A stretch of DNA of 46,532 nt, from the sequence record PZ379549.1. One strand, written 5' to 3'. Both the position numbers and the translations under genes were made by a program. Source of the DNA: a phage. Below, one piece after another: positions 2,382 to 36,350 of the stretch (positions within the stretch are counted from its first letter, which is position 1; every line of letters begins with the position of its first letter). The notes under the pieces were generated by a model. That model did not search any database. It saw only the letters and a program-made list of their open reading frames with translations, and was not told the DNA's origin.

Positions 2382-3927
2382 GACGTAGCCTCCTCTACAG
2401 CTTCCTGGAAATACCTGCCCAACCTTGCTTGCACCACGCCAAGAACGCCAGCCGGAGCCTGATTCGAAGCCCCATACTCAAGGTCAGCAGGCGTAATCAA
2501 GCCTGTTAGTTATGTAGATAACACTTTGTCGCTGGTGAATTAGCCACAGCTCGAGCTTGCCTTGCCAGATACCTTTTTGTATGCTCCACCTGTTTTGATC
2601 GTAATCATTCAGAGACTGAGCTGAGCTGGGGAGTTCGCTGTAATCTGCCAGTTAGCCTTAAACCTACCAGTATCAACAGGCGATAAATCCACGATGGCGT
2701 TAGCAGCCTTAATTACCGTGTCGGCAGACAACAATATCAGAGAAGTTATCATCAGCTCTATCAATCCAATCAGCAATAGCTATTCGTCAAAGGTAGCCAA
2801 CACCACCAATATTTCTAGCCATAGGTAGCCACCCTCCTTAGAATTGGTCTGTAAGCCAACTACTAGTTCCTGTTGGTTTGACTGGCCTCGGGTCGACTAC
2901 AGTGTAAGTTTCATCTTCAACTATAATCCTGATAGCCCTGCAAGATTGCGGACTTCAGACAGTGAAAATTCCACGCTTGTCACCAAACTGGATATATTCG
3001 CCATCAATATCTCTGCGTTTTAATCTCCCTCACCAAGCCCCTTGATTGAAATGCAGTTGCCGCCAGCTACAGGAACCTCAACGCCGTCAACGATTTCGAC
3101 ACCATCCTTTACCAGTATTCATCTCGTGAATGTACCATCTGCCATCACTAAAGATAGTTGATGCCCGTGCGCATTAATTGATTCTACTTGGGAGTAATTC
3201 ATTGGCAACCGCACTCACCGCCAGCAGCGGACGTAATCAAGCCAAATCCGCCGCCTTTCTTGCGCAGGAGATTCCTAGTAAAGTGCGGCCCCACGGCGTA
3301 GCTGATCAATGATGACCTTGAGTTTGCGAGGTGGATATCATAAGCTGATAGAAAATTCACCGCTCAGCGGAGTAACTTGCCACCTTCTATGGCCATATAT
3401 CATCCAGCGACTTCATTCTCGCCCTTAAGCGCGCCATCAAGAAAGGCATCATGTGCAGATGTGTATAGTCCGACAGCGCTTTATAAGCATCATGCACCAA
3501 ACTTACTGGTCGCAGATGTATAGACTTAGCTAACTCAAGCCATACGTCCAGCGATTCGTCATCTGGAATATTCTTAAGAGCAGGAACCAGCGACTTGCAT
3601 AAAGGCTAATGCTTGTATCGTTCATAAAACCTCCATACAATAAACGGACGCCGAAGCGCCCTGTTTGGTTATTTGTACTCGTTGACCAGTCTCAGCCTCG
3701 GCAGATGGTTTTCGGTTCTTTGCGCTTATATTCTTGCTAACAACTTCTTGCGACGATTTGTTTGGTTGCCTTGGTGTCACCCTCAACCTGGTGAGTTGAC
3801 CCTCTGCGATTAAACGCTTGAGCCCAGTCGCAAATTACCTCAACCTCGAATGAGTGTCACCAGGCAAATATTTCTCACCTTTGTAAACGATAATCGTGCA
3901 CGCTCCAGTGTGTTCTAAACGAATCAT
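2382..3927 (-). pseudogene. frame-disrupted block of head-tail connector/neck genes (at least 4 genes)
   Basis: No ORF >=60 aa on either strand over about 1.5 kb; good RBS+ATG starts at 3927 (AAGGAG) and 3625 (GGAGG, ATGA overlap with upstream stop) each run into stops within 15-30 codons while adjacent frames continue protein-like sequence. Confidence 0.45.
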
Positions 3928-3993
3928 TTATTGCTCTCCTTTTATTAATTGATGGTTGATTATAACCCAACAAATCCATTTAGGTACAGACGT

Positions 3994-4016
3994 AAAAAAG
4001 CCCTCCATAAGAGGGC
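3994..4016 (-). terminator. rho-independent terminator after major capsid gene
   Basis: Minus-strand RNA GCCCUC-UUAUG-GAGGGC followed by UUUUUU. Confidence 0.65.
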
Positions 4017-4098
4017 GATTTATTACGCGAAGGTGATGCCTTTGATTACAGCCATACAGTCAGCGGGCGATAAACAATCAATCCCGTCGCTTTTGAGG

Positions 4099-4977
4099 TT
4101 ACCGGGTAGCGTGAAATGCAGGTCCTTCGGCTGAGCCAGGTAGCACGTTCGTCACTTCTGGAATCTCAATACTCAGGTTGAGCGGATCCTTTTCAAACGC
4201 CAGTGCAGCTTTGCCACCAGCACCGTCGTAGTTATCCAGGAATTGCAGATAACGCAGAGTGATGCCGGAGTTATTGGTTGCAAACAACTGCGCGTAGCTG
4301 ATAGAGGTGTTCGGCACCAGTTCTTGCATCAGGCGGCGAGCGGAAGCAGGCAGCAGGATATCAGTCGCGGTGTGAGCACCATTGGTAGCTGTTTCGATAG
4401 CATCGATAAGCGCTGTGATATCAGTCATAGCAGCAGCCGCGGAGTTCCACGTACCAGCAACAACCTGGTTAACGTTCGGACGCATTGAATACGCCAGGAA
4501 TGCCGTGCGGTGCAGAGCCAGACCATACCAGTTTATCGAGCAGGTTGTCATGCGCTTCAAAAGCCAATGCCTGTTTACGAGCTGACAGTGACTGACCAGT
4601 TGCTGCGCCAGCTTTGATTTCGTCGGTGGAAATCAGGAACGCGTTACCAAAACGGAAAACTTTGCCTTGCTTCTCGGTCATGAACGCATCAACCAGCGGC
4701 AAGGTCATCAGAGTAATCAGCGATAATCTGAGCAATTACCAACACCATCAAACTCTGGATATTCGAAATACTTCGCGTGAGCCAGGAATTTCATTAGTTA
4801 CCGGGAAGATATTAACAACTGAGTTTTCTGCGATATTCTTTTTCGTAAGCGCGATGTCAGAGCTAGCGGTCAAGCTGGCTTAACGGTCCAGATACCAGCA
4901 GCATCAGCTTTATCTACACCCATTTGCTCAAGGTGAGCGGTGATTTTTGCTTGTTCTGCATCAAATTTAATGGCCAT
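4099..4977 (-). pseudogene. major capsid protein gene, interrupted by at least 3 frame changes
   Basis: ATG at 4977 (MAIKFDAEQAKITAHLEQMGVDKADAAGIWTVKPA then stop); capsid-like segments continue in other frames (ORFs 4469-4735 and 4099-4560); position between decoration gene and neck block. Confidence 0.55.
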
Positions 4978-5085
4978 TCTTGTTTATTCCTTTTCAGTTA
5001 GGTATGTACGAGTCAATTATACACGACTTTGTGGTTGTTACAATAGCATCATACATGAGGCTTAAATCTGGATGGCAAAATACAC

Positions 5086-5108
5086 AAAAAAAAACCTCCC
5101 GAAGGAGG
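5086..5108 (-). terminator. rho-independent terminator after decoration gene
   Basis: Minus-strand RNA CCUCC-UUCG-GGAGG followed by UUUUUUUUU. Confidence 0.7.
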
Positions 5109-5674: not shown

Positions 5675-6748
5675 CTAATTTCTTAGGCTGCGTCGGCAGC
5701 TATCAGATTTGTCGGAAGCTGCGGTTGCCTTGCGAACTTCAGCCATTTTATCAGAATCTTTGGCAATGTCGAACGCTGCATCGATGTATGCGTCGGACTT
5801 CTCGGAAACATCAAGGCCGGAAACTTCTTTAACGTATAATACCTTAATGCCTTTAGCATCCAGGCCATCAGTCTTAACACCAGCTTCAGTGGCTACAGTA
5901 ACCAGAGCGGCAAGTGCTTCAGCGTCAGCTTTGGCAGCTTTGACTGCTTTCTCGATTTCAGCGGGCATTGCGTCTACTTTGGCTTTCAGTGCGTCACGCT
6001 CAGCTTCGATGGAATCAACCTTAGCTTTCTGTGCTTCAACAGCGGAGTTAATTTTGGAGATGTGGTCTGCAACCTCTTTAGACACCTCAACTTCAACAGA
6101 GTCAATCTTAATCTTAACTGTCATTTTGTTTTCCTTAGTATTTAAATCAACGTTGTCAGTATACGGGTTTTCTTGCTGCCCGTCCATATTTAGCTTAGCA
6201 ATTCCAGCCCTACCCCTGAAGACCATAGCTAAATGGTTTACCTTAATGTCTCTCTGGATTGCGTCGAACTCTTGCCAGTCAGGGGGTATATCCAAACCCT
6301 GCGTGTTGTCAGTCCTAAGAATGTACTTACCAGTTGCCGGGTCGCCCCAACCTGGAGTTTCATCAAGAACTGCCGAGTAACCTACAGATAATTCCTTAGC
6401 GTTACCTGAGCGAGCCTCGTCAATAGCTTCTTGAGAGTATACGACAATTGGCGCAATTACCGTACTTCCTAGAGCCTCAGCTTTACCAGTTACCGAGCCG
6501 ACCACTACGTCTTTAGCGTTATCGGAGTTTACAAAGACGTGGTCAAGAGTCATTGGCTTACCCTGGTAACTGGCTAGCGACTCCTCTTTGAAGACTTCTT
6601 CTGCTGGCCTGAACTCTCGAACAGTCGAACCATCCTCTGTGAAATAAACCTGCACACCAACCCTTGCTACTACTGGCGTATCGACGAGAAAACCATTCTC
6701 GTCAATGGTGGCTTTGAATGTTGCTGTATCAAAGCGATTCTTATACAT
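5675..6748 (-). CDS. putative prohead protease / scaffold protein
   Basis: N-terminal globular part plus C-terminal coiled-coil (KAKVDSIEAERDALKAKVDAMPAEIEKAVKAAKADAEALAAL); ATG 6748 with GAGGAG RBS preferred over GTG 6763. Confidence 0.45.
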   Translation of the reverse strand: MYKNRFDTATFKATIDENGFLVDTPVVARVGVQVYFTEDGSTVREFRPAEEVFKEESLASYQGKPMTLDHVFVNSDNAKDVVVGSVTGKAEALGSTVIAPIVVYSQEAIDEARSGNAKELSVGYSAVLDETPGWGDPATGKYILRTDNTQGLDIPPDWQEFDAIQRDIKVNHLAMVFRGRAGIAKLNMDGQQENPYTDNVDLNTKENKMTVKIKIDSVEVEVSKEVADHISKINSAVEAQKAKVDSIEAERDALKAKVDAMPAEIEKAVKAAKADAEALAALVTVATEAGVKTDGLDAKGIKVLYVKEVSGLDVSEKSDAYIDAAFDIAKDSDKMAEVRKATAASDKSDSCRRSLRN

Positions 6749-6796
6749 CCCAATTCTCCTCACTAAAATCCATCGAATTCATCTTTCATCCTCATG

Positions 6797-11890: not shown

Positions 11891-11966
11891 TGGTGTTCCG
11901 CACTGGACTCGAACCAGTAACTAAGACTTAGGAGGTCTTTGCGTTATCCTGTTACGCCAGCAGAAC
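11891..11966 (-). tRNA. tRNA-Arg (anticodon CCU, reads AGG)
   Basis: Hand-folded 76-nt cloverleaf: acceptor GTTCTGC/GCGGAAC, D-arm GCGT-AACAGGATA-ACGC, anticodon arm AAGAC-CTCCTAA-GTCTT (U33, CCT, A37), variable AGTT, T-arm ACTGG-TTCGAGT-CCAGT, discriminator A, encoded CCA. Confidence 0.8.
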
Positions 11967-12912: not shown

Positions 12913-12990
12913 ATCTCTATCTCTCTTCGTTGTTTGATGGGTTAATTATATGGCATCCATGCCTGTCATGTTTAGCAATTCGTGCTATCC
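12913..12990 (-). promoter_or_regulatory. box-hairpin-(-10)-leader unit
   Basis: Box 12971-12990, hairpin GGCATGGATGCC, ATATAATT, CCCATCAAACAACGAAGAGAGA, ATG 12912. Confidence 0.4.
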
Positions 12991-14258: not shown

Positions 14259-14335
14259 ATCTATACTCCATCTCGTTGTCGATGTGGTAATTATGCCGGA
14301 TTTCTCCGGCAATTGTTTAGCAATTCATGCTATTC
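14259..14335 (-). promoter_or_regulatory. box-hairpin-(-10)-leader unit
   Basis: Box 14315-14335, hairpin GCCGGAGAAATCCGGC, ATAATTAC, CACATCGACAACGAGATGGAG. Confidence 0.4.
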
Positions 14336-14942: not shown

Positions 14943-15017
14943 ATCCTCTTTTGCTTTGCTTCAATAAGGCCACTATATCAAATGGCCTTGCGGAAGGTTT
15001 AGCAATTCGTGCTATTC
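14943..15017 (-). promoter_or_regulatory. box-hairpin-(-10)-leader unit
   Basis: Box 14998-15017 abutting stop of 15016-15201, hairpin AAGGCCA..TGGCCTT, TATAGT. Confidence 0.4.
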
Positions 15018-17759: not shown

Positions 17760-17923
17760 TGCTTTTACCATCTGATATAAACTATTTCGATCTGGAAATA
17801 ATTAGTGCTTACAGCGGAAAGGGTTGGCCTTGCGGGGACTGGTTTAACGAGGACCTGCTTGAGTCTCACGAGATTATGTTGAAGGCAATTGAGAAGGCCA
17901 GAAAAAATAGCACTAATTGCTAA
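17759..17923 (+). CDS. hypothetical small protein ending ...KNSTNC
   Basis: 54-aa ORF translated by hand; C-terminus and stop encoded by box. Confidence 0.3.
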   Translation: MLLPSDINYFDLEIISAYSGKGWPCGDWFNEDLLESHEIMLKAIEKARKNSTNC

Positions 17924-17982
17924 AACTCACCGCCACGGATGGCGTATATTTACTCCATCGAAACGAAAGAGAGCAAGAGATC
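17906..17982 (+). promoter_or_regulatory. box-hairpin-(-10)-leader unit
   Basis: Box 17906-17924, hairpin CGCCACGGATGGCG 17931-17944, TATATT 17945-17950, TACTCCATCGAAACGAAAGAGAG. Confidence 0.45.
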
Positions 17983-18700: not shown

Positions 18701-18760
18701 TAATGCATTATAAGCGGCTATTGATATAATGGCCGCTCAGAAACAATGCGGAGAGAAGTA
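18686..18760 (+). promoter_or_regulatory. box-hairpin-(-10) unit
   Basis: Variant box 18686-18703, hairpin GCGGC..GCCGC enclosing TATAAT. Confidence 0.4.
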
Positions 18761-20023
18761 ATGTTTGATTTCAATGAAGATAAACTATCTGTTGAGCAAG
18801 TTATGGCGATCGCTGCCAATGACAACCTACCACCGCTTCGCGTGGCTATTAATGCCAATGGCTATCGACAGTCTCAATCGTTCTGGAAAGCACCTGTCGA
18901 GATTGATACAGGTAATGATAAGTATCCAGTAATCTCACTCGGTAATGATATTGATGTTGTTGGTAAGCTATCGGCTAATATCGCTCGCTCGGTTCAGTTC
19001 CCTGAGTCGTCAGCTTACATGCACTTTCTTGGTTGTGTTTCTGCTGCAATGCTTGGGCGTTTTACTGTCGAGTATCATGGAACCCAACAGCCAACATCTT
19101 TGTACGTGGTAACAAGTCAGCCGCCTTCAACTGGTAAATCAGCCATTAACTCGCTATCAATTGCGCCGATGATTGCTGAGACTGAGCGGTTGAATGAAGT
19201 ACGTAAACGTGATCGAAAAAAGATTATGGCTAAACTGTCCGCTCTGGCTAAAGAGATGAAGCAGGAGAAATCACCTTCTGAAATGGCTTCACTTTTTGAG
19301 GAGAAGGAGGATTTAGAGGAGAAGCTCGAGAAGCTATGCGATATAGTATTCCCTGTCTCCGATACTACTCCGGAAGGTCTTGCGCGAATCAACAATCGCC
19401 AGGGTAATTTTGCGGTAATCTCTGATGAGGCTACTAGCGTCAACTCACTGTTAGGCATGACTTACGGTGATGGCTCGAAGAAAACGAACAGCGAGCTCGT
19501 GCTGAAAGCATGGGATGCAGGTAATGTGTCAATTGCCCGTGCGAACGCAGAAAATAACATGAGCTTTGTGGCTATGGGATGCATCTCCGTAATTGCTCAG
19601 GATGAAACAATCAATGCCATTATGAATGCTGGTGCGCGTGGTATTGGTGTATCTGAGCGTTTCCTTCTGGTGCGTGAAAAATCATTTCTTGGCGACCGTG
19701 TATTTGTTGATGAAAATGGTGATTCAACCTATGAGGCTATTGATGGCGGCCTGAAAGCAGACTATTTCCGTCTTGTTCATGAGATTATGAATGAAGTTGA
19801 AGTGAAACTTACTGTAAGCGCGTCATCAATGCGTTACCTTAACCGCGCTCGTCAAGAGATGGAGCCTCATCTTGGTGATGGTGGCAAGTATTCTCACACA
19901 ATGTTGCGCGGTGCTCTTGGTAAGTTTGATAAGCAAGCAATCCGCATCGCTTCTGTTCTGCACGTAATTCGTAACTGGTTCTCACCAGCCGGATCCAGCC
20001 CTCAAGAAGTCAAGAGAGATTGA
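18761..20023 (+). CDS. P-loop NTPase, DUF3987-like (replication-associated?)
   Basis: Walker A-like SQPPSTGKS and Walker B-like FAVISDEATS; ATG 18761 with GGAGAGAAG RBS (track start 18746). Confidence 0.45.
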   Translation: MFDFNEDKLSVEQVMAIAANDNLPPLRVAINANGYRQSQSFWKAPVEIDTGNDKYPVISLGNDIDVVGKLSANIARSVQFPESSAYMHFLGCVSAAMLGRFTVEYHGTQQPTSLYVVTSQPPSTGKSAINSLSIAPMIAETERLNEVRKRDRKKIMAKLSALAKEMKQEKSPSEMASLFEEKEDLEEKLEKLCDIVFPVSDTTPEGLARINNRQGNFAVISDEATSVNSLLGMTYGDGSKKTNSELVLKAWDAGNVSIARANAENNMSFVAMGCISVIAQDETINAIMNAGARGIGVSERFLLVREKSFLGDRVFVDENGDSTYEAIDGGLKADYFRLVHEIMNEVEVKLTVSASSMRYLNRARQEMEPHLGDGGKYSHTMLRGALGKFDKQAIRIASVLHVIRNWFSPAGSSPQEVKRD

Positions 20024-20033
20024 ACTGGATACA

Positions 20034-20246
20034 ATGCAGGAAGCGGTTATGATTTTCAACGAACTAAGCAAGACTTATTTATCATCCGCTAGTGCTGCTG
20101 GTCATGCTGGTGACAATGCCGAGATGAACAAGCTGGTTGATATCCTGATTAAGCAGGGCAAGAATGGTAAAGGTGTTGTTGGTGTTCGCTCGTTGTATGA
20201 GGCTGCACGCAAGGTTAAACCTTTTGAAGCTCAGGCTGGAATGTAA
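20034..20246 (+). CDS. hypothetical protein
   Basis: 70-aa ORF. Confidence 0.4.
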   Translation: MQEAVMIFNELSKTYLSSASAAGHAGDNAEMNKLVDILIKQGKNGKGVVGVRSLYEAARKVKPFEAQAGM

Positions 20247-20712: not shown

Positions 20713-21084
20713 GTTTTTCCTGAATATCATTAAGAGCAGAATGATGATGACGCAAAACATGATTCCACTCCCAATCCACGGGATTGCAGACGAATCATTG
20801 TTGGTGATTTCAATCTTCTCAGCCGTGATTGTTGATGCCTTGATTGAGTTATCAGAAGTCTTTTTACCGCTTGAACTATCAAGAGTGTCAACCTTAGAGT
20901 TCTTCACTTCAGCCTTTGCGCTGGAACTTGAATCAACCTTATTAGTTATCCCCACTCCAACCTTGTTATTCTCCGCACCTGCTTGAGCGCTAATCTCTGG
21001 CCTACTACCAATCAACCCGGTCAGCGCAGATGTTGCCGAGCAACCAGAAAGTATAATTACCGCAGCAATTAACGCAGCCTTCAT
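20698..21084 (-). CDS. unimolecular spanin (u-spanin)
   Basis: N-terminal lipoprotein signal with lipobox LSGC, Ser-rich periplasmic part, C-terminal transmembrane helix; last gene of lysis cassette. Confidence 0.55.
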   Translation of the reverse strand: MKAALIAAVIILSGCSATSALTGLIGSRPEISAQAGAENNKVGVGITNKVDSSSSAKAEVKNSKVDTLDSSSGKKTSDNSIKASTITAEKIEITNNDSSAIPWIGSGIMFCVIIILLLMIFRKNKKAP

Positions 21085-21567
21085 TTACCCACCCCACTTA
21101 AGCATAATTTAATCTCCTCGTTGCGCCTGTTGACGAGGCCTTTAACAACTTTTAGCTTGCCATTTACTCGAGCTTTATTCCAGGAGGCGAGAGCATTACA
21201 ACCCTGCTTCAATCTTGCCCTGATTAATCAGCCTTACTGCCGTTGACTTCCTCATTGCAGCGCCACCAACGTTGTAGCTAAAGCTGATTAACGCCGCCCT
21301 TGTCTGTGGAGAGATTGGGTAAGTTACTGCATCCTGCACATACTTTCCATGAATCTGGATGTGTTTCTCCAGTAAGTTCCTGCACTCCCTTGCACTGTAC
21401 TTTTTACCCCACACCACATCAGGACCAGTGATACCTGAACAAACCGTAGGAATGCCTGCAATGTCCATGTAAGGCTTGTATTCCACACCTTCTACTAGCT
21501 CAATAATCGGCGCTGCGATGTATATTGCCACAGCCGTCGCTGCACTAATTACCAGCTTCTGCTTCAT
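21081..21567 (-). CDS. SAR endolysin (phage lysozyme), apparent frame change near 21196-21215
   Basis: N-terminal SAR-like hydrophobic segment, catalytic region LVEGVEYKPYMDIAGIPTVCSGITG; C-terminal 34 codons (WNKARVNGKLKVVKGLVNRRNEEIKLCLSGVGK) lie in another frame ending at TGA overlapping spanin ATG. Confidence 0.6.
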
Positions 21568-21782
21568 TACTTACTCCTAATATTGATAGCTGTCTTTAAA
21601 TCACCCGACTCTAGAGCCTTCCTGATTGCCTGACTGTCCTTAAACTTCCAATATGCTCCCCACAGCCCGAAAACAACAAGAGCCACAAGGCTGATTATTG
21701 CTATAGTCATTTGACCAGTTGCGGCACCAGTTACAGCGGCTCCGCCGGTTGATGCCGTGGCGGCGTTAATTACTTCCCTCAT
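21567..21782 (-). CDS. holin
   Basis: 71-aa protein with one hydrophobic helix and charged C-terminus; directly upstream of endolysin; ATG 21782 preferred. Confidence 0.5.
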   Translation of the reverse strand: MREVINAATASTGGAAVTGAATGQMTIAIISLVALVVFGLWGAYWKFKDSQAIRKALESGDLKTAINIRSK

Positions 21783-21909
21783 GTGATCACCTTTAAATCC
21801 TAATTTGTCAATACATAGTGCAAATATCATACATTAGGCGGTGGCAAATTATAAGCAAAAAAAGGGGAGCCAAAAGGCCCCCCGCATGCAAATCTATGTT
21901 TTTGATGTG

Positions 21910-22083
21910 TTAATCTGCGATAATAAATTCCACCAAAGAGCCATCAATCGGCGCAAGGATGTGAGTCATATCGTCACCGTAAACTTTGTAGTAACCGTCA
22001 CCTAGAGACTCTGCGCTGTACGGCTGGTTTTCGGTGAACGGCAGTGTCTTTGAGTTGTTTTTAACGCAGTATAATTTAGTCAT
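21910..22083 (-). CDS. hypothetical small protein
   Basis: 57-aa ORF translated by hand, GAGGA RBS, downstream of box unit. Confidence 0.3.
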   Translation of the reverse strand: MTKLYCVKNNSKTLPFTENQPYSAESLGDGYYKVYGDDMTHILAPIDGSLVEFIIAD

Positions 22084-22160
22084 TTTTGAATCCTCTGTTG
22101 TTTTCGATGTAGTAATTATGCCGGATTACTCCGGCGATTGTTTAGCAATTCGTGCTATTT
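22084..22160 (-). promoter_or_regulatory. box-hairpin-(-10)-leader unit
   Basis: Box 22140-22160 (encodes kinase C-terminus NSTNC), hairpin GCCGGAttacTCCGGC 22120-22135, ATAATTAC, CATCGAAAACAACAGAGGA. Confidence 0.45.
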
Positions 22161-22696
22161 ATTACGTGCATTACCAAAGCAGAGGTTCCATCAATATCAC
22201 CATCTACAACATGAACGTCAATTTCTCTTGCGCAGACACCGCGAATGTAGGAGCGGCTATCTCCATCAAAAGTATAGCCAGGCCTAAAAAGTCTAATCAA
22301 AGTAACTTCAACCCCTGAATCAATGAGAGTATTAATCTCGCTAGCGAAGCCACCATCAGCACAGATATAGCAACCATCACCAAGTGATTGCGCTAGCCTT
22401 TTACCGAAAACATCATCACCAAAGACTGGCTTCATAACTGACTCACTAATCCAAATCATAAATTCACGAACCGTCATTCCACCAAGAAATTCATGTGGTG
22501 ATTCTTTGTACTCTCGGTCATCGTAATTCTTAATAAATTCATCAAACTCATCGCTTGATAGTATTCCTTTTGCAACATTAAACATTGGTGACTTGAATGA
22601 AACCTTATCCTTGCAAATTCCAAGATTAACAATGATATCTGCAACTGTATCTTTTCCAGCACCAGGGGGTGCATTAAGGATGATTAACTTTTTCAT
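22142..22696 (-). CDS. P-loop nucleotide/polynucleotide kinase
   Basis: Walker A LNAPPGAGKDT; ATG 22696 right after upstream stop; track start is upstream alternative. Confidence 0.55.
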   Translation of the reverse strand: MKKLIILNAPPGAGKDTVADIIVNLGICKDKVSFKSPMFNVAKGILSSDEFDEFIKNYDDREYKESPHEFLGGMTVREFMIWISESVMKPVFGDDVFGKRLAQSLGDGCYICADGGFASEINTLIDSGVEVTLIRLFRPGYTFDGDSRSYIRGVCAREIDVHVVDGDIDGTSALVMHVINSTNC

Positions 22697-22697
22697 T

Positions 22698-23171
22698 TTA
22701 TTCTCCGTGAGATTCGCAGTCTTTTGGTAATTCTTTATATTCACAAACTGACATTACAGTATATCCGCAATTCCTTAGGTGACTGATAACATTAGGATTA
22801 TCCTCAAAGATTATCACACTTGCTTTGTCACCATTACACAAATCATTTAGCCACATCTCTTTAATGATATAGTCATTTCTGTTATCCAATCTACTCCTCA
22901 TATATATTCCATCATAATTAATATTATTATACTGAAGCCATTCAAGCGTCATACATTCGACTTCGTCACTTCTTGAAGTCATGATGTAAACTGGCGATAA
23001 CTCAGCTAACGCATTCATCATGTTTATCATTGGAATTATCGGTGAATCTCCAGAACAGGCTCTATTGTAATCACTCCAACTTGAAGTCAAGTGAAGGTCA
23101 CTAGATGGTAAGAGGTGGCTTCTATGTTCATTGTTAGCAATAGTTCCATCAATATCAAACACGTAAATCAT
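22698..23171 (-). CDS. HAD-superfamily phosphatase
   Basis: N-terminal DxDGT motif (VFDIDGT); adjacent and co-oriented with kinase. Confidence 0.55.
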   Translation of the reverse strand: MIYVFDIDGTIANNEHRSHLLPSSDLHLTSSWSDYNRACSGDSPIIPMINMMNALAELSPVYIMTSRSDEVECMTLEWLQYNNINYDGIYMRSRLDNRNDYIIKEMWLNDLCNGDKASVIIFEDNPNVISHLRNCGYTVMSVCEYKELPKDCESHGE

Positions 23172-23250
23172 TACAACTCCTCATCTCGTTATCGTTTATT
23201 CATTTTGCCTCAATCCTTTGAGGCTTTATTAACAAAAAATGCTATTACTT
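23172..23250 (-). promoter_or_regulatory. box-hairpin-leader unit (variant box)
   Basis: AATAGCATTTTTTG box 23231-23250, 7-bp-stem hairpin GCCTCAA-tcct-TTGAGGC 23207-23224, leader TAAACGATAACGAGATGAGGAG. Confidence 0.35.
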
Positions 23251-24378
23251 AAACATTTCAGGTCGGCAAGTGAATCGACCAACTTCACCGTACTCTGAGC
23301 TATAGATAATTACTGAGGCCTGACGATAAGAGCGATACCCTCCGTTTGCGCTGTACGCATCTTTAGCACCCAACTGACCGTGTGACTCATCAATTCCAAG
23401 ATTACCCTCAGTAACCGTCTGATGATGATAATGGCCACTATGTGTATAAACGTATTCAGCATTACCAAATGCTTTGCGATGGTCGCGCGCAAGAGTTGAA
23501 AGACGAGTGTCAGGCTTTCGCAATTCATGACCATGGCAGTAACCCAACAATGTTTTACCAAACTCCGTCACGTGAAGAGCGGCTGGTGAGGCATCAACAT
23601 TTACACGAGGCTCATCCATGTAGAAGGCAGCCATTGCAGCTCGAAGCCAAATCATCCCAGAAAGGTCGTGGTTGCCTGGTATAATCTGAACCTCAACCTC
23701 TTTATGCTTGTCAAGCATCTTACTGACGGCGCGGCGAGTTGCACGAACAGCTACGTAGACAAGTTTATGATAACGGCTATCTTGATCAAGTACGTGCTTG
23801 CTGGTTGGAGTTACAGCTTCCATTCCATCCGAGTGAAGGAAGTCTCCACCAATCAGTAATACGGCTTTTGATGAATTCGGGGCCTTAGCAACTGCATAAT
23901 CAAAGTATTGGTTAAGCACTCGCTCTGCAATTTCTGTACTGTAGTTCTCCCCACACTCTGCATGGTGAGCCATTGCGCCAATATGCATATCAAACACGGG
24001 GTAGAGGCTCAAGGTGTCCTCATAGCTTGATTCACTGAGTGGTTTCGGAGTCTCTCGAGGGAGCTCATCTGTAAGCGCCTGAACAATCTGCTGAAGCATC
24101 TCTTCTTGTTTCTGTTCGTCGATGGAAGTTTTAACCCAGCGAAGCTTCTCATTACCATCCGCATCAATCATTGTTGAAGTGCCTTTAACAAGATAGCCAT
24201 CAGGAACTAGCTTCTTGATGCCTTCATTACCATGCCCAACCCCACTCTTAGCCAACTTGCTACGACGAAGCTCAACGTTTCGAATGTTCATTCCGTACTT
24301 CTCTGCAATCGCCTTGTTAGTCAGGCCGTTTTTCAGTTCTTCGATCAACTGCTCGGTGGTAATTTTTGCTGCTGCCAT
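23245..24378 (-). CDS. calcineurin-like metallophosphoesterase with N-terminal HTH
   Basis: HTH-like LTNKAIAEKYGMNIRNVELRRSKL; phosphoesterase motifs DMHIG, GGDFLH, GNHD, GHE, GHYHH. Confidence 0.55.
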   Translation of the reverse strand: MAAAKITTEQLIEELKNGLTNKAIAEKYGMNIRNVELRRSKLAKSGVGHGNEGIKKLVPDGYLVKGTSTMIDADGNEKLRWVKTSIDEQKQEEMLQQIVQALTDELPRETPKPLSESSYEDTLSLYPVFDMHIGAMAHHAECGENYSTEIAERVLNQYFDYAVAKAPNSSKAVLLIGGDFLHSDGMEAVTPTSKHVLDQDSRYHKLVYVAVRATRRAVSKMLDKHKEVEVQIIPGNHDLSGMIWLRAAMAAFYMDEPRVNVDASPAALHVTEFGKTLLGYCHGHELRKPDTRLSTLARDHRKAFGNAEYVYTHSGHYHHQTVTEGNLGIDESHGQLGAKDAYSANGGYRSYRQASVIIYSSEYGEVGRFTCRPEMFK

Positions 24379-24463
24379 TTTTAAGTCCTTAGTTCATCAC
24401 GATAAAATATAAGATAGTAAAGCTAACCAGTGGTGCTAATGCTACTAGGGCTACATATTTCAT

Positions 24464-24712
24464 TCAACCTCTTTCAACCAAAAGTCCAACAAAGTCAGCA
24501 CAAATTGCTAATTTCTTGTCCAGGTCAGTCATGCACAGGTTTCCACATGATGGTGAATAATAAATCTGTACCCACTTGCCATCTTTAGTCTTCGCATTAA
24601 CATCTACGTAGTCAGGAGGAAACCAGTCAGAAATAGGGATTGCTCTAAACTTATTCCCACTACTACCATGTACTAAGTCATAATGCCCAGGCTGAAAATC
24701 TAATCCCAACAT
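24464..24712 (-). CDS. hypothetical protein
   Basis: 82-aa ORF. Confidence 0.35.
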   Translation of the reverse strand: MLGLDFQPGHYDLVHGSSGNKFRAIPISDWFPPDYVDVNAKTKDGKWVQIYYSPSCGNLCMTDLDKKLAICADFVGLLVERG

Positions 24713-24714
24713 AA

Positions 24715-24957
24715 CTAAACCTTCGTTATCTTAAATTTGAATCCCTGTTCTTTCAGGAACTCATTCGTGTTTATCGTGACGCCAGGTTTAACACTGACAT
24801 ACTTGCGCGGCCTTTCATCCATGTACGTAAACTTACCGTTGAAGATGACACTGATATCTTTTATATCGAAGTACTTAGATATCATCTTAATGTCGTCCTG
24901 AATGCCAGCCTCTGCGCAGTGGGCCCAGACTGCGGCCCGTCCTGTTTCAACTATCAT
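24715..24957 (-). CDS. hypothetical protein
   Basis: 80-aa ORF. Confidence 0.35.
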   Translation of the reverse strand: MIVETGRAAVWAHCAEAGIQDDIKMISKYFDIKDISVIFNGKFTYMDERPRKYVSVKPGVTINTNEFLKEQGFKFKITKV

Positions 24958-25083
24958 AAGCCGTATGCCAATTTCAGGTATTCACGCGCACACATCCAAT
25001 GACTCATTCTGATTGAAACTCAACTGCATCAACTCAGTATAAATGTTGGGCAATCCTAAACATCTCCTTATCTACGATTTTCA

Positions 25084-25305
25084 TTATTCAAAATCCTCCG
25101 GGCAATCTTTTTTCATTTCCGCAATGTCTGCAACCATGCGTTCGCGCCATGTTTCGATGTCCGTTCGCAAGTAATCTTCTTCAAAGCTGTAATCAAGGCA
25201 TCCTGCTAAAAACCATGAGTCACCTTTATAACCAGCATTGTGTAGCTCCTGAACCCCCATTGCCTGAAATAGTTCCCATTGTTTGTCAAATGTTAAAATT
25301 GCCAT
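25084..25305 (-). CDS. hypothetical protein
   Basis: 73-aa acidic ORF. Confidence 0.4.
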   Translation of the reverse strand: MAILTFDKQWELFQAMGVQELHNAGYKGDSWFLAGCLDYSFEEDYLRTDIETWRERMVADIAEMKKDCPEDFE

Positions 25306-25505: not shown

Positions 25506-25590
25506 TTTCTTTCTCTCTTTGTGTGTTTCGTTTCGATGAGTTGATAATACACCAACTCACCAATTCGTCTTTAGCAATTCGTGCTATTTT
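25506..25590 (-). promoter_or_regulatory. box-(-10)-leader unit
   Basis: Box 25570-25590 overlapping upstream stop TAG, TATTAT, CTCATCGAAACGAAACACAC. Confidence 0.4.
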
Positions 25591-26008: not shown

Positions 26009-26263
26009 TCAATCCTCCATCGTAAATGATTTGTTGGCGATAATATCTTGCGACTTCTGATTCTTGCGGTGCGTAATCCTTAGCGGCGCACGGAAAAGAT
26101 GTGCATTTGTCATAATCATTTTAGCATTACGCAATCTGCCAATCCTAAAAGCCTCAGTCCTGTTCTCGATGTGAGTTGAGCAAAACGCCTTCCATTTGAC
26201 AGAACAAACACGATGGTCTGACTCCGGGAAGAATGTTTCATAAGCTCGGAATCTTGTCACCAC
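26009..26263 (-). CDS. hypothetical ORF (possible frame-shifted helicase tail or separate small gene)
   Basis: 84-aa ORF overlapping helicase 3' end. Confidence 0.25.
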   Translation of the reverse strand: MVTRFRAYETFFPESDHRVCSVKWKAFCSTHIENRTEAFRIGRLRNAKMIMTNAHLFRAPLRITHRKNQKSQDIIANKSFTMED

Positions 26264-28006
26264 TGTGAGCCATTACCTCATATGAAGCAACGATCCCTGA
26301 CTGGTTCTTTGTTAACCCAATCTTGAAGTCATAAACTCGCAACCAGTCCCCCTTACGATACATTTTTCCTGATAACTTAGCATTCGGGTCTATGAGCATC
26401 TCACCACAGCATCTGCAATTCTTAGCTGCAATATCATTCTTCTCACCGCATCCTTTCTTAATGATAGCTTTGGTCTGTGGGTCCGCTATATCTTCACACA
26501 GTCTAAACTGAAAGAAGTGCTCACAGCGCTTCCAGTCAATTACGTTATTGCAGCGCCTGGCTAATTGAGAGTTCACATAAGAGCATGCCGGACAGATTCT
26601 TGGCTTATCACCACGCTTTCTTGCTGACCTAAATTTCTGGTCTTGTACCTCTTCTATAATTGGGTCGAAGTAAAGTTCAGCCATATCATCAAGCGTTCCA
26701 GCAAAATCAAGAACAACATGGTCATCTTTTACCATTCCAGCTTCTTTGTGCTTCTTCTTAAGGATACGCATACCACGACCAAGCAACTGAATGAGTAGAG
26801 TAATGCTACCAACCTTCCTCAGGATAATGCTTGTATCCCACGGGGGGCAGTTTACGCCAGTTGTGAGGCAACCAATCTGAAATATGAACTTATATTCTCC
26901 GTTGGCTGCCTTCTCAAGTATCTCTCTACGCTTCTTCTCACCAGTGGAGTTGGTAACTATCGCCCAAGTAACACCTTCTAGGAAGTGCGGCTGCCGCCTC
27001 CATCGCAATGCTGTTTGCCAGCGCAAGTTACCAATGCAGCATTCCTTGTTTCCATAAACTTAGCAGCAAATCCCATTATCTTTTGTGTCATCGTTTGGTT
27101 TTCGTGAATCTTTGCAGCCATCGCATCCATTTCTTTCTTGCTGAAGTCCTTAACCCCATCACTTCCATCAGGAGTGAACTCACTAAGGTCGTAGCCCAAA
27201 TCACCAACTTCACCGTAGACAGTAGGAACAACGAACCCCAAGTCAACAAGGTAGCTGGTTGGCACTTGCATTACAGTTTTGCGCCAGAATCCACGGACAT
27301 TTGGGTTACTAACTACAATGTGGTCGTTGTTACGGTACGGGCTGCCAGTCAAACCGAAGATGCGTAGTTCGCGACCATACTTCTCTTTGCAGCGTCTCTT
27401 CATCTCAGTAATGATTAGCGTGTACTGCGCACGACCAGTTCCGAGCAATCCGGTATTCACTCCATCCTTGAAAACCATCTCACCCTTCTTCGTGCTCATC
27501 TGCTCGAATGTTTCCTCGTTCTCTTCAGCTTCTACGATATCCATATGGTCAACCATATGACATTCATCTATCGCAATAACGGCAGGAACATAGTCACCAA
27601 GGCCCTTAAACAAGCCGTTAGCAGCCGTGCCCTCACTAGCCACTATGGTTGGGTAGTAAACTGATTTAACGTTAAGGCCAGCGCAATAGACGCTATTACG
27701 GATGCCGAAGTTACGAAGCTCTTCAGCGTTCTGGCTGATAATTTCTGACTGGCGAGAAAGCACCATGTAAGGAAGCCCAAGCTGTTCCATGCGCTTTCCA
27801 ATCATGGCAAGAATAATTGTCTTACCAGCAGATACAGACAGGTCTGCGATGAATGGGGCCTCGTACTTTCCAATAGCCTTCCCAATTGCATCAAATGTCA
27901 CACACTGGAATGGGTAAGGAGTGATTTCTCCAAACTGGTAATCTCTCTGAATCTGCTTAATCTTCTCTTGATCGAAGTTGGCTACTAAGCGCTCTACTGG
28001 AAGCAT
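26238..28006 (-). CDS. SF2 DEAH-box helicase with C-terminal Cys-rich region, one frame change near 26978-27026
   Basis: N-part ORF 26978-28006 has Walker A SAGKT and DECH; C-part ORF 26238-27026 has motif VI QLLGRGMR; the two overlap in different frames. Confidence 0.65.
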
Positions 28007-35591: not shown

Positions 35592-36282
35592 ATGGTTATC
35601 TGGTCTTTATTTGATGGTTCTGGTCTGGCGGTAAAGGATTGGGCTGAAGCTGGCCACACTTGCTACTGTTTCAACTTTGATGAGTCTGACCACGGCAGCT
35701 ACAGTGACTTAAATGCAAAGGTTGAGCATGAGAACATCACATACGTTAACGCATGGATAGATGCTGACTTCGATTTTGATGTGAAACCTGATTTTATAAT
35801 GGCGTTCCCTCCATGCACTGACTTAGCCGTGAGCGGATCAAGACACTTTGAACGCAAGTGTACTAGCTAACCCTAACTTCCAAATTGAAGCTGCGGAGAC
35901 GTGCAAGATTGCTTTTAATCTTGCTGAAAAATACGGAGTACCATACATGATCGAGAACCCAATCAGCGTACTGTCATCACTTTGGCGAAAACCTGATAAC
36001 ACCTTCCACCCATATGAATACGGAGGCTATTTGCCGGAAGATGATTTACACCCGTTTTTTAGCGACCTAATAAAGCCAAAAGACGCATATCCCAAGAAGA
36101 CATGCATTTGGTATGGCAATGGGTTTAAATGGCCAGAGGCAATTCCAGTGGACGTTAACGGTGGATTCTCTGACCAATACAAGAAGCTAGGCGGGAAGAG
36201 CAATAAGACAAAGGTAATTCGCAGCCTAACTCCTCGCGGTTTTGCAAAAGCCGTCTTCATTGCAAATAGCACCAATTGCTAA
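35592..36282 (+). CDS. C5-cytosine DNA methyltransferase-like, one frame change near 35848-35870
   Basis: Motif I LFDGSGLA, PC motif FPPCTDLAVSG, ENV-like MIENP; two overlapping ORFs in different frames. Confidence 0.5.
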
Positions 36283-36350
36283 AGACAAATCTCAAGGATG
36301 AGATATCATTACTCCATTGAAACGAAACACACCTTCTAAGGAATACGAAA
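36264..36350 (+). promoter_or_regulatory. box-hairpin-(-10)-leader unit upstream of cor-like gene
   Basis: Box 36264-36284 encoding MTase C-terminus NSTNC and stop, hairpin ATCTCAaggaTGAGAT, TATCAT, ACTCCATTGAAACGAAACACACC. Confidence 0.4.

Follow-up and report, generated by a model that had tools for sequence, protein, structure and literature searches.

A metallophosphoesterase, HAD phosphatase and kinase gene cassette in a T1-like phage as a candidate module for DNA breakdown and deoxynucleotide supply

We analysed the 46,532-nucleotide phage sequence PZ379549.1 over its full length (hereafter, the window) and studied three neighbouring genes in it, which encode a metallophosphoesterase (MPE), a phosphatase of the HAD type and a P-loop kinase. 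The window is the genome of a T1-like siphophage, a coliphage of the Drexlerviridae (Braunvirinae), and the three co-oriented open reading frames (ORFs) on its minus strand exactly occupy positions 22142-24378. Three such adjacent genes with catalytic motifs had been described in an earlier interpretation made from the letters alone (the sequence-only reading), and this is confirmed: all three genes are full length and the catalytic motifs are intact in all three proteins. The trio is a real cassette whose adjacency goes beyond chance, because the same gene order recurs in Guernseyvirinae and Autographiviridae. The family and fold assignments, the intact active sites, the operon structure and the gene order across unrelated lineages are firm. 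As to function, the cassette has in our estimate about an even chance of being a mobile phage module for DNA breakdown and for the salvage or supply of deoxynucleotides.

Families of the three proteins

The HAD protein has the catalytic residues D6, D8 and T10 (in FDIDGT), R17, R67, D96, D100, K104 and D124, all invariant in 13 homologues, and it is small and essentially capless. It matched the Pfam model HAD_PNKP (PF25109) over residues 3-142 of 157 with 55.5 bits (cut-off: 27.6), and this model was present in 28 of 28 close homologues. The HAD profile aligned over the whole length of the protein with residues 158-300 of T4 PseT (hhalign Prob 98.4%, E 1e-14); in the PDB, the profile of 13 homologues found Pnkp1 (4XRP, E 2e-16) and T4 Pnk (5UJ0, E 3e-12; 1LTQ, E 3e-10). 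T4 residues D165, D167, R176, R213, R246, D250, D254, K258 and D278 have identical counterparts in the HAD, which are invariant in the family. Mutagenesis in the Shuman laboratory reportedly identified D165, D167, R176, R213, D254, D277 and D278 as essential in T4 Pnkp. These positions align with D6, D8, R17, R67, D100, E123 and D124 of the HAD, and all but E123, which is replaced by Asp in the phages K1ind2, Era103 and Xoo-sp2, are invariant. Indeed, the resemblance to the T4 Pnkp phosphatase suspected from the motifs is confirmed by the Pfam score and the PseT alignment, and the chemistry predicted from these residues is securely that of a phosphomonoesterase. For the substrate, homology is no guide, as the distantly related T5 Dmp uses 5'-deoxynucleoside monophosphates (dNMPs).

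The HAD and T5 Dmp (E 4e-57) both belong to PHROG 415, which carries the label 'polynucleotide kinase', and the HAD profile aligned remotely with Dmp in hhalign (E 5e-6). Since the HAD is a protein without a kinase domain, we regard this database label for the stand-alone phosphatase as a misleading annotation transfer; it is misleading for >1,300 phage records. T5 Dmp itself (NC_005859, 124-858), a 5'-dNMP phosphatase of 244 residues with insertions, was matched by no Pfam model.

In the kinase, the P-loop reads GAGKDT and both K15 and D16 are invariant, as are K35, S84-E85, K89 and D146-S147-R148 in its family. No Pfam model matched it, and its profile found only P-loop matches in the PDB. 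It did match phrog_139 (E 1.5e-43, profile positions 72-260), the family that T4 gp1 also matches (E 1.8e-65, positions 83-261), and in the predicted structure the closest fold was that of T4 gp1 (PDB 1DEK) and not the polynucleotide 5'-kinase fold of the T4 Pnkp kinase domain. Only 27 columns at the P-loop aligned with T4 PseT in hhalign, and the PseT families phrog_505 and phrog_2071 were not matched except for a P-loop-only match with E 2e-4. To compare functional residues, we took the residue roles in gp1 from Table 2 of PMC10653934 (based on 1DEK) and aligned 79 family members with gp1. The equivalents of gp1 R68, R132, M135, W152, D175, E181, R197 and D204, which contact dNMP or ATP in gp1, are kept in the family; R68 corresponds to R61 of the kinase (71 of the 79 sequences), R132 to R77, D175 to D114 and E181 to E120. 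These comparisons place the kinase in the T4 gp1 family, and it is most probably a (d)NMP kinase, although its acceptor is somewhat doubtful. The sequence-only reading had grouped it with polynucleotide kinase-phosphatase repair enzymes, which does not agree with its membership of phrog_139 together with gp1 and with a similarity to PseT that is limited to the P-loop.

The metal-binding motifs of the MPE are D130xH132, G178-D179-F-L-H182, G235-N236-H237-D238, H282 and G315-H316-x-H318. Most residues of these five motifs are invariant among 41 diverse homologues (30-71% identity), and the others are at least 90% conserved. Motif II reads GDFLH, as in Mre11 and PdeM, and thus contains the His characteristic of Mre11/SbcD nucleases. 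The protein is structurally similar to the Mre11/SbcD-type nuclease domain, and the bacterial Pnkp/lambda-phosphatase type, with its motif II GDxxDR, was not the closest fold. Judged from the modelled fold, the MPE is a predicted nuclease-type metallophosphoesterase and not a phosphatase of the Pnkp/lambda type.

The sequence matches of the MPE were weak. Its Pfam Metallophos score (19.7 bits) lies below the cut-off of 21.5, no significant sequence match to solved nucleases was found (PDB profile matches to SbcD and Mre11 had E 0.5-2), and its weak best sequence matches were to the ligase-associated nuclease PdeM/MPE. The label 'DNA repair exonuclease' for this protein rests only on fold-level resemblance. 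For the window proteins, NCBIfam gave only insignificant matches (PdeM; 'anti-phage phosphoesterase', E 0.017; adenylate and guanylate kinases), and single-sequence PDB searches with the three proteins returned nothing useful. A fold search in BFVD with the MPE found mostly unnamed phage MPE proteins, and T5 A1 was absent among the top 50. We had considered the MPE as a specific homologue of T5 A1, but in hhalign the alignment was limited to 20 columns surrounding GNHD (Prob 22%), and we dropped the claim of orthology and kept the analogy. T5 A1 (NC_005859, 1706-3376) has no Pfam match, yet its C-terminal half shows the motifs DxH, NHD, HGH and GHTH. No Rad50/SbcC-like ATPase partner was found in the window, where the only ORFs of at least 500 aa encode the terminase and tail proteins, and no SMC-like ORF was found in the annotated relatives.

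The N-terminal helix-turn-helix (HTH) of the MPE consists of three helices at residues 8-45, predicted with a pLDDT (predicted local distance difference test) score above 90. In the window protein itself, the sequence match to an HTH is weak (HTH_24, E 0.14), and many family members match Pfam HTH families (best E 4e-6), so that the HTH is a trait of the family. The family comprises 4,697 representative clusters (50% identity) at E<=0.001, with 2,055 phage records. The architecture had been called unusual in the sequence-only reading; in fact it defines a large phage family.

Recurrence of the gene order in other phages

Neighbourhoods were sampled at 80 IMG/VR loci centred on the HAD and at 80 centred on the kinase. 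The full order MPE, HAD, kinase was present at 23 of the HAD-centred and 16 of the kinase-centred loci. Around the HAD, the kinase gene followed within about 2 kb at 10/80 loci, and MPE followed by HAD only was seen at 5/80. Around the kinase, a HAD gene lay upstream on the same strand at 48/80 loci, a match to an ATP-dependent DNA ligase was present at about 10/80, and a 5'-3' exonuclease gene adjoined at about 5/80.

The trio stands in the same order in Webervirus-like Drexlerviridae, in the Kagunavirus K1ind2 (Guernseyvirinae), where it lies among tail genes with overlaps of 4 nt and 1 nt, and in Era103 (Autographiviridae), where a gene for an ATP-dependent DNA ligase begins 5 nt after it. 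In these lineages the stop and start codons of successive genes overlap or adjoin. In Era103-type podophages, the cassette is located between T7-gp6-like exonuclease/endonuclease genes and the ligase gene. Identities to the window MPE, HAD and kinase are 46, 42 and 48% in K1ind2 and 41, 36 and 38% in Era103, and this similar divergence of the three proteins fits inheritance as a unit. The proposal that the three genes form a functional module therefore held with regard to the module, which is a conserved cassette in unrelated phages; its other part, the healing of RNA ends, did not, since no ligase was found in the window and both the kinase and the MPE fall outside the Pnkp type.

Not all three genes are equally bound to each other. 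In a survey of 522 Drexlerviridae, the MPE gene was present in 508 (core), directly upstream of the lysis genes, and the genes annotated as 'PNK' and 'dNMP kinase' were accessory inserts after it (PMC13164509). For this reason we consider HAD followed by kinase as the tight unit and the MPE as a frequent but non-obligatory partner. Outside the trio, the HAD gene follows nrdA-nrdB in Krischvirus, and the kinase gene precedes that of dUTPase in phage flopper. A search of a plasmid collection returned only a few phage-like records.

There is also mosaicism within the cassette. Phage SU57 has an MPE with 66% identity to that of the window and a HAD and kinase with 82-85%, and AN_ECEAS has a HAD with 99% and a kinase with 87% identity. 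Because these identities differ gene by gene, they suggest recombination breakpoints at the gene junctions of the cassette.

Possible roles of the cassette

We infer as follows what each enzyme acts on, in which order they work, and that the DNA attacked is that of the host. The HTH-MPE would be a DNA nuclease of the Mre11/SbcD/PolD-DP1 structural type that uses the N-terminal HTH to bind DNA and breaks it down towards 5'-dNMPs, the most plausible target being the host chromosome. The HAD would clear phosphomonoesters that block or pollute this flow, either 3'-phosphates on DNA fragments and nucleotides or, like T5 Dmp, unwanted dNMPs. The gp1-type kinase would convert dNMPs to the diphosphates (dNDPs), from which host Ndk would form the triphosphates (dNTPs) for replication by the host polymerase, as T1-like phages encode no polymerase.

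This explanation fits best because of the reuse of nucleotides by T1 and TLS, the precedents of T4 gp46/gp47 and T5 A1-dmp, and the nrdAB, dUTPase and exonuclease genes found as neighbours. Degradation of the host chromosome and reuse of its nucleotides by T1-like phages has been known since 1981; T1 and TLS reportedly do both, and the responsible genes had not been identified as of the TLS reannotation of 2024 (PMC11447400). The T4 record annotates gp46/gp47 (SbcCD-like, Mre11-type) as required in host-DNA degradation. For T5, it was demonstrated in 2026 that the predicted metallophosphatase A1 is both required for the destruction of host DNA and enough to bring it about, and that it works together with Dmp; dmp, A1 and A2 invariably occur as linked genes, and the N-terminal part of A1 reportedly binds DNA and its C-terminal part is an MPE nuclease. 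In the literature, we found no direct evidence for a host-DNA-degradation gene of T1 or for defence escape mutants in this MPE. In the 2026 survey of 522 Drexlerviridae, genes labelled 'polynucleotide kinase' and 'dNMP kinase' were noted behind the exonuclease gene, and a role in nucleotide supply was guessed there as well (PMC13164509).

Several observations weigh against this explanation. A phosphatase beside a dNMP kinase looks antagonistic unless it is specific for 3'-phosphates or for unwanted nucleotides. In the kinase, two of the four residues that bind the dNMP phosphate in gp1 are replaced, K37 by F39 (F/Y in the family) and R177 by G116 (an invariant Gly), and therefore the acceptor may differ. 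The HAD resembles the Pnkp domain, which acts on polynucleotides, more closely (E 1e-14) than it does Dmp (E 5e-6). The hidden Markov model of the MPE family scores T5 A1 and T4 gp47 equally poorly (about 4 bits each), and the parallel between the MPE and A1 is one of analogy, not of established orthology. The MPE is core in Drexlerviridae and the HAD and kinase are accessory, with the HAD..kinase pair of T1-type genomes lying away from the MPE, and a separate role for the MPE is therefore clear. Finally, HAD and kinase genes often adjoin a DNA ligase gene, which fits DNA repair equally well.

DNA repair is accordingly the main rival, which we judge unlikely but still to be reckoned with: the ends of DNA would be healed before ligation, with the HAD removing 3'-phosphates, the kinase acting on 5'-OH DNA ends despite its dNMP-kinase fold, the MPE trimming, and a phage ATP-dependent DNA ligase or, in T1-like phages, host LigA sealing. 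The full 3'-phosphatase active site of T4 Pnkp in a small, essentially capless HAD would suit this role, as would the loss of the phosphate binders K37 and R177 and the weak matches of the MPE to the ligase-associated PdeM. Linkage points the same way: besides the ligase gene behind the Era103-like trio, in Xanthomonas phage Xoo-sp2 the HAD gene directly adjoins a DNA ligase gene, and the kinase gene overlaps a ligase gene in several podophage contigs and lies next to one in phage flopper. However, the ligase adjacency may merely mirror the block of DNA-metabolism genes in T7/SP6-like genomes, and the window has no ligase. The assignment of the kinase to the gp1 family counts against it too, and the equivalents of the dNMP-phosphate binders R68 and R132 are retained. 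Moreover, the ends produced by Mre11-type nucleases are 3'-OH and 5'-P and do not have to be healed.

Rather improbable, in our view, is a counter-defence by control of the nucleotide pool, in which the HAD and kinase would remove or convert dNMPs released from the degraded chromosome and so silence Metis or PUA-Cal-HAD, which are triggered by m6dAMP, or offset defences that deplete dNTPs. Bacterial systems that sense m6dAMP from phage-induced host-DNA degradation do exist, and in Metis the HAD phosphatase MisB detoxifies m6dAMP (bioRxiv 10.1101/2025.11.05.686725; 10.64898/2026.01.15.699771). The cassette joins a probable DNase with two nucleotide-phosphate enzymes, and its HAD and kinase genes, like many anti-defence genes, are accessory and move between phages. 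Still, the idea is purely inferential, PADLOC found no match of the window proteins to defence or anti-defence profiles, and T5 is reportedly Metis-sensitive although it has Dmp. Counter-defence also overlaps with nucleotide salvage and does not exclude it. In a narrower and very improbable form, the accessory HAD-kinase pair, together with the DNase-type MPE, would counter an immunity that reads chromosome destruction via free modified dNMPs (m6dAMP sensors such as Metis and PUA-Cal-HAD): the HAD would destroy or 'sanitise' methylated and unwanted dNMPs and the kinase would rapidly move the normal ones to dNDPs. If so, the phage would salvage host DNA without triggering the alarm or incorporating methylated bases. 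That the cassette itself belongs to a known defence system was rejected, as PADLOC gave no matches.

The three genes could also be functionally unrelated neighbours, namely a core recombination/replication nuclease beside which two accessory nucleotide-metabolism morons have been inserted. The core status of the MPE against the shell status of the HAD and kinase in Drexlerviridae, the separate HAD..kinase pair of T1-type genomes and the mosaicism seen in SU57 (MPE 66%, HAD and kinase 82-85%) would be expected under this view. It is nevertheless quite improbable, considering the same order with overlaps of 4 nt and 1 nt between the tail genes of Kagunavirus and again in Era103-like podophages, the parallel divergence of the three proteins in both, and the independent MPE-HAD linkage (A1-dmp) in T5-like phages.

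Hardly credible is the split RNA end-healing module of the sequence-only reading, in which a phosphatase/cyclic phosphodiesterase and a 5'-kinase would act against host anticodon nucleases, together with the tRNA of the phage and an RNA ligase that is either unrecognised or supplied by the host; the family assignments of kinase (gp1-type and not Pnk-type) and MPE (nuclease-type and not Pnkp/lambda-phosphatase-type) have largely refuted it already. The phosphatase domains of T4 Pnkp and Pnkp1 (Pnkp1-Rnl-Hen1) are indeed homologues of the HAD, and at 3/80 HAD-centred loci a more PseT-like HAD gene directly precedes a gene for an Rnl1-type RNA ligase, so the HAD family is used for RNA repair elsewhere. 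No Rnl1 match, however, lay near the MPE, HAD, kinase loci in either IMG/VR sample, and the ligase adjoining the cassette elsewhere is an ATP-dependent DNA ligase. That no RNA ligase was recognised in the window was corroborated: neither the PHROG scan of the larger unassigned ORFs nor a phmmer search of all ORFs seeded by T4 RnlA plus three DNA ligases from phages (E >1; T4 Rnl2 was not among the seeds) found an RNA or DNA ligase, and none is listed in the annotation of close relatives. A KxDG scan returned six ORFs of at least 120 aa, of which the identified ones (HNH endonucleases, primase, tail protein, phrog_2684) are not ligases; ORF 5675-6778 was left without an assignment. The window does have a gene for tRNA-Arg(CCT) (11891-11966, minus strand), which had been linked to the cassette as part of the counter-defence. 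This link did not hold up, as the gene is 10 kb from the cassette in another transcription block, among small early-type ORFs. No tie between the two was found, and the tRNA may supply the rare AGG codon or act as a decoy. As for the three HAD-ligase loci (viral contigs L078, L090 and L093), they look like genuine RNA-repair pairs, in contrast to the window cassette; the HAD ORF of L090 has 315 aa and may be a full Pnkp.

To summarize, all components of the cassette belong to known families, close relatives in GenBank have these genes annotated, and both the adjacency and the guess of nucleotide supply have been published. Added here are the family assignment of each gene, the conservation of the cassette across phage families, the parallel to the A1/Dmp pair of T5, and testable candidates for the question of host-DNA degradation by T1-like phages, namely the DNase-type MPE (core in the Drexlerviridae), the Pnkp-type phosphatase and the gp1-type kinase. 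The cassette also bears on the newly described immune systems that sense dNMPs from host-DNA destruction.

Surroundings of the cassette and known systems

Across 21800-24500, the window shares 93.7% identity with the Escherichia phages ES and AN_ECEAS (Drexlerviridae, Braunvirinae), and AN_ECEAS is colinear with the window across the 37-kb stretch of AN_ECEAS that was compared. Coordinates of the cassette and of the signals around it are given in Table 1.

Table 1 Features of the cassette and its surroundings in PZ379549.1
Feature	Position	Strand	Description
MPE gene	24378..23245	-	HTH + metallophosphoesterase, 377 aa
N-terminal HTH of MPE	24357..24244	-	aa 8-45
Linker of MPE			beta-hairpin/helix, aa 62-104
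Nuclease-type MPE domain			aa ~119-377
MPE/HAD intergenic spacer	23172..23244	-	73 nt; 7-bp hairpin and GAGGAG ribosome-binding site (sequence read)
HAD gene	23171..22698	-	stand-alone DxDxT phosphatase, T4 Pnkp phosphatase-domain type, 157 aa
P-loop kinase gene	22696..22142	-	T4 gp1 family, 184 aa
Promoter-like element over kinase stop codon	22115..22160	-	-35-like TTGCTA, inverted repeat GCCGGAGTAATCCGGC, -10-like CATAAT
Copies of ~20-nt element, one orientation	22139-22160, 12969-12988, 14279-14334, 14997-15016, 25570-25589, 33864-33883		
Copies of ~20-nt element, opposite orientation	17905-17924, 36264-36283		
Upstream copy of promoter-like element	25570..25589	-	blastn-short copy list
Intrinsic-terminator-like hairpin	21864..21883	-	strong; 8 bp, 7 G-C, then T7; before holin gene

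The GAGGAG ribosome-binding site of the HAD gene lies 7 nt 5' of its ATG. One base past the HAD stop codon (TAA-A-ATG), the kinase gene begins with an ATG at 22696 that has GGAG 7 nt upstream, and the two genes are translationally coupled at this junction. This ATG is the most likely kinase start, because all homologues have about 184 aa and a Shine-Dalgarno sequence stands before it. For the same reasons, the longer ORF of 200 aa from GTG 22744 is probably unused.

The repeated element of about 20 nt reads ATAGCACGAATTGCTAAACA on the strand of the downstream genes and includes the -35-like TTGCTA. Its copy at the kinase gene overlaps the final five kinase codons and is followed by the inverted repeat and the -10-like sequence. 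Because most copies lie between ORFs in the same direction as the neighbouring genes, the repeats suggest a family of phage promoters with a possible operator. The transcription unit of the cassette itself is bounded downstream by the element over the kinase stop codon, from which the small ORF 22083..21910 is probably transcribed, and the copy at 25570-25589 is the probable start of an operon that would run through four small ORFs into MPE, HAD and kinase. No terminator-like site was found on the minus strand between 25200 and 21883, and the hairpin before the holin gene, the only such site on this strand within 21500-25200, closes the transcription block. Given this sole terminator-like site and the promoter-like copies on either side of the cassette, the three genes probably belong to one operon with the four small upstream ORFs. 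The hairpin in the MPE/HAD spacer (23224..23207; 7 bp, GCCTCAAAGGATTGAGGC) has no T-run after it on the minus strand and is terminator-like only on the plus strand, where no gene ends. It is thus no obvious terminator for the operon and may, on the operon strand, be an RNA processing or stability element.

Between the kinase and holin genes lies a 57-aa ORF (21910-22083, minus strand) that matched phrog_4788 (E 2e-29) and probably encodes the stand-alone SH3 (DUF7244) protein that was recently assigned to the lysis module of Drexlerviridae (PMC13164509); according to the same survey, kinases and SH3 co-occur in only seven phages. Elsewhere in the window, several genes appear interrupted in comparison with relatives. 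The helicase gene is split into overlapping ORFs of 342 and 262 aa (26238-28006, minus strand), and the endolysin ORF (21081-21567, minus strand) has 123 aa, compared with 161 aa in AN_ECEAS. Of a DNA methyltransferase with a profile of 247 positions, only a fragment of 144 aa is present (35848-36282, plus strand), a helicase-like ORF (18746-20246, plus strand) ends at 425 aa of a 515-position profile, and region 2400-5100 has no long ORF. The interrupted genes are either sequencing-error frameshifts or real pseudogenes.

Compared with known systems, the HAD differs from the phosphatase of T4 Pnkp in being a stand-alone protein that is not fused to a Pnk kinase, has a partner kinase of another family and is not accompanied by an RNA ligase. 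Its flap after motif I (HRxxLLP...W..YN.AC..D) is 12 residues longer than in PseT and is shared with T5 Dmp. It is homologous to the phosphatase domain of Pnkp1 in the Capnocytophaga Pnkp1-Rnl-Hen1 RNA-repair complex (PDB 4XRP). With bacterial Pnkp (Clostridium thermocellum Pnkp/Hen1, which has a calcineurin-type phosphatase domain), the common feature is a P-loop kinase together with a metallophosphoesterase. The kinase has 18% identity to T4 gp1 (PDB 1DEK/1DEL) and lacks its insert of about 55 residues (184 vs 241 aa). In contrast to Mre11/SbcD, including T4 gp47, and to archaeal PolD DP1, the MPE has an N-terminal HTH and a beta-hairpin module instead of the usual partners. Metis (the calcineurin-like phosphoesterase MisA with the HAD MisB) and PUA-Cal-HAD likewise combine an MPE with a HAD and are tied to dNMPs from host-DNA degradation, but they belong to the defences of the host and not to phages, and in Metis the HAD MisB is of the PF13419 type and MisA acts as an NAD+ diphosphatase. 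T5 has the same three enzyme classes in one phage (A1, Dmp and the T5 dNMP kinase), with Dmp in the same PHROG as the window HAD; T5, however, excretes nucleosides rather than reusing them, whereas T1-like phages reuse the nucleotides of the host.

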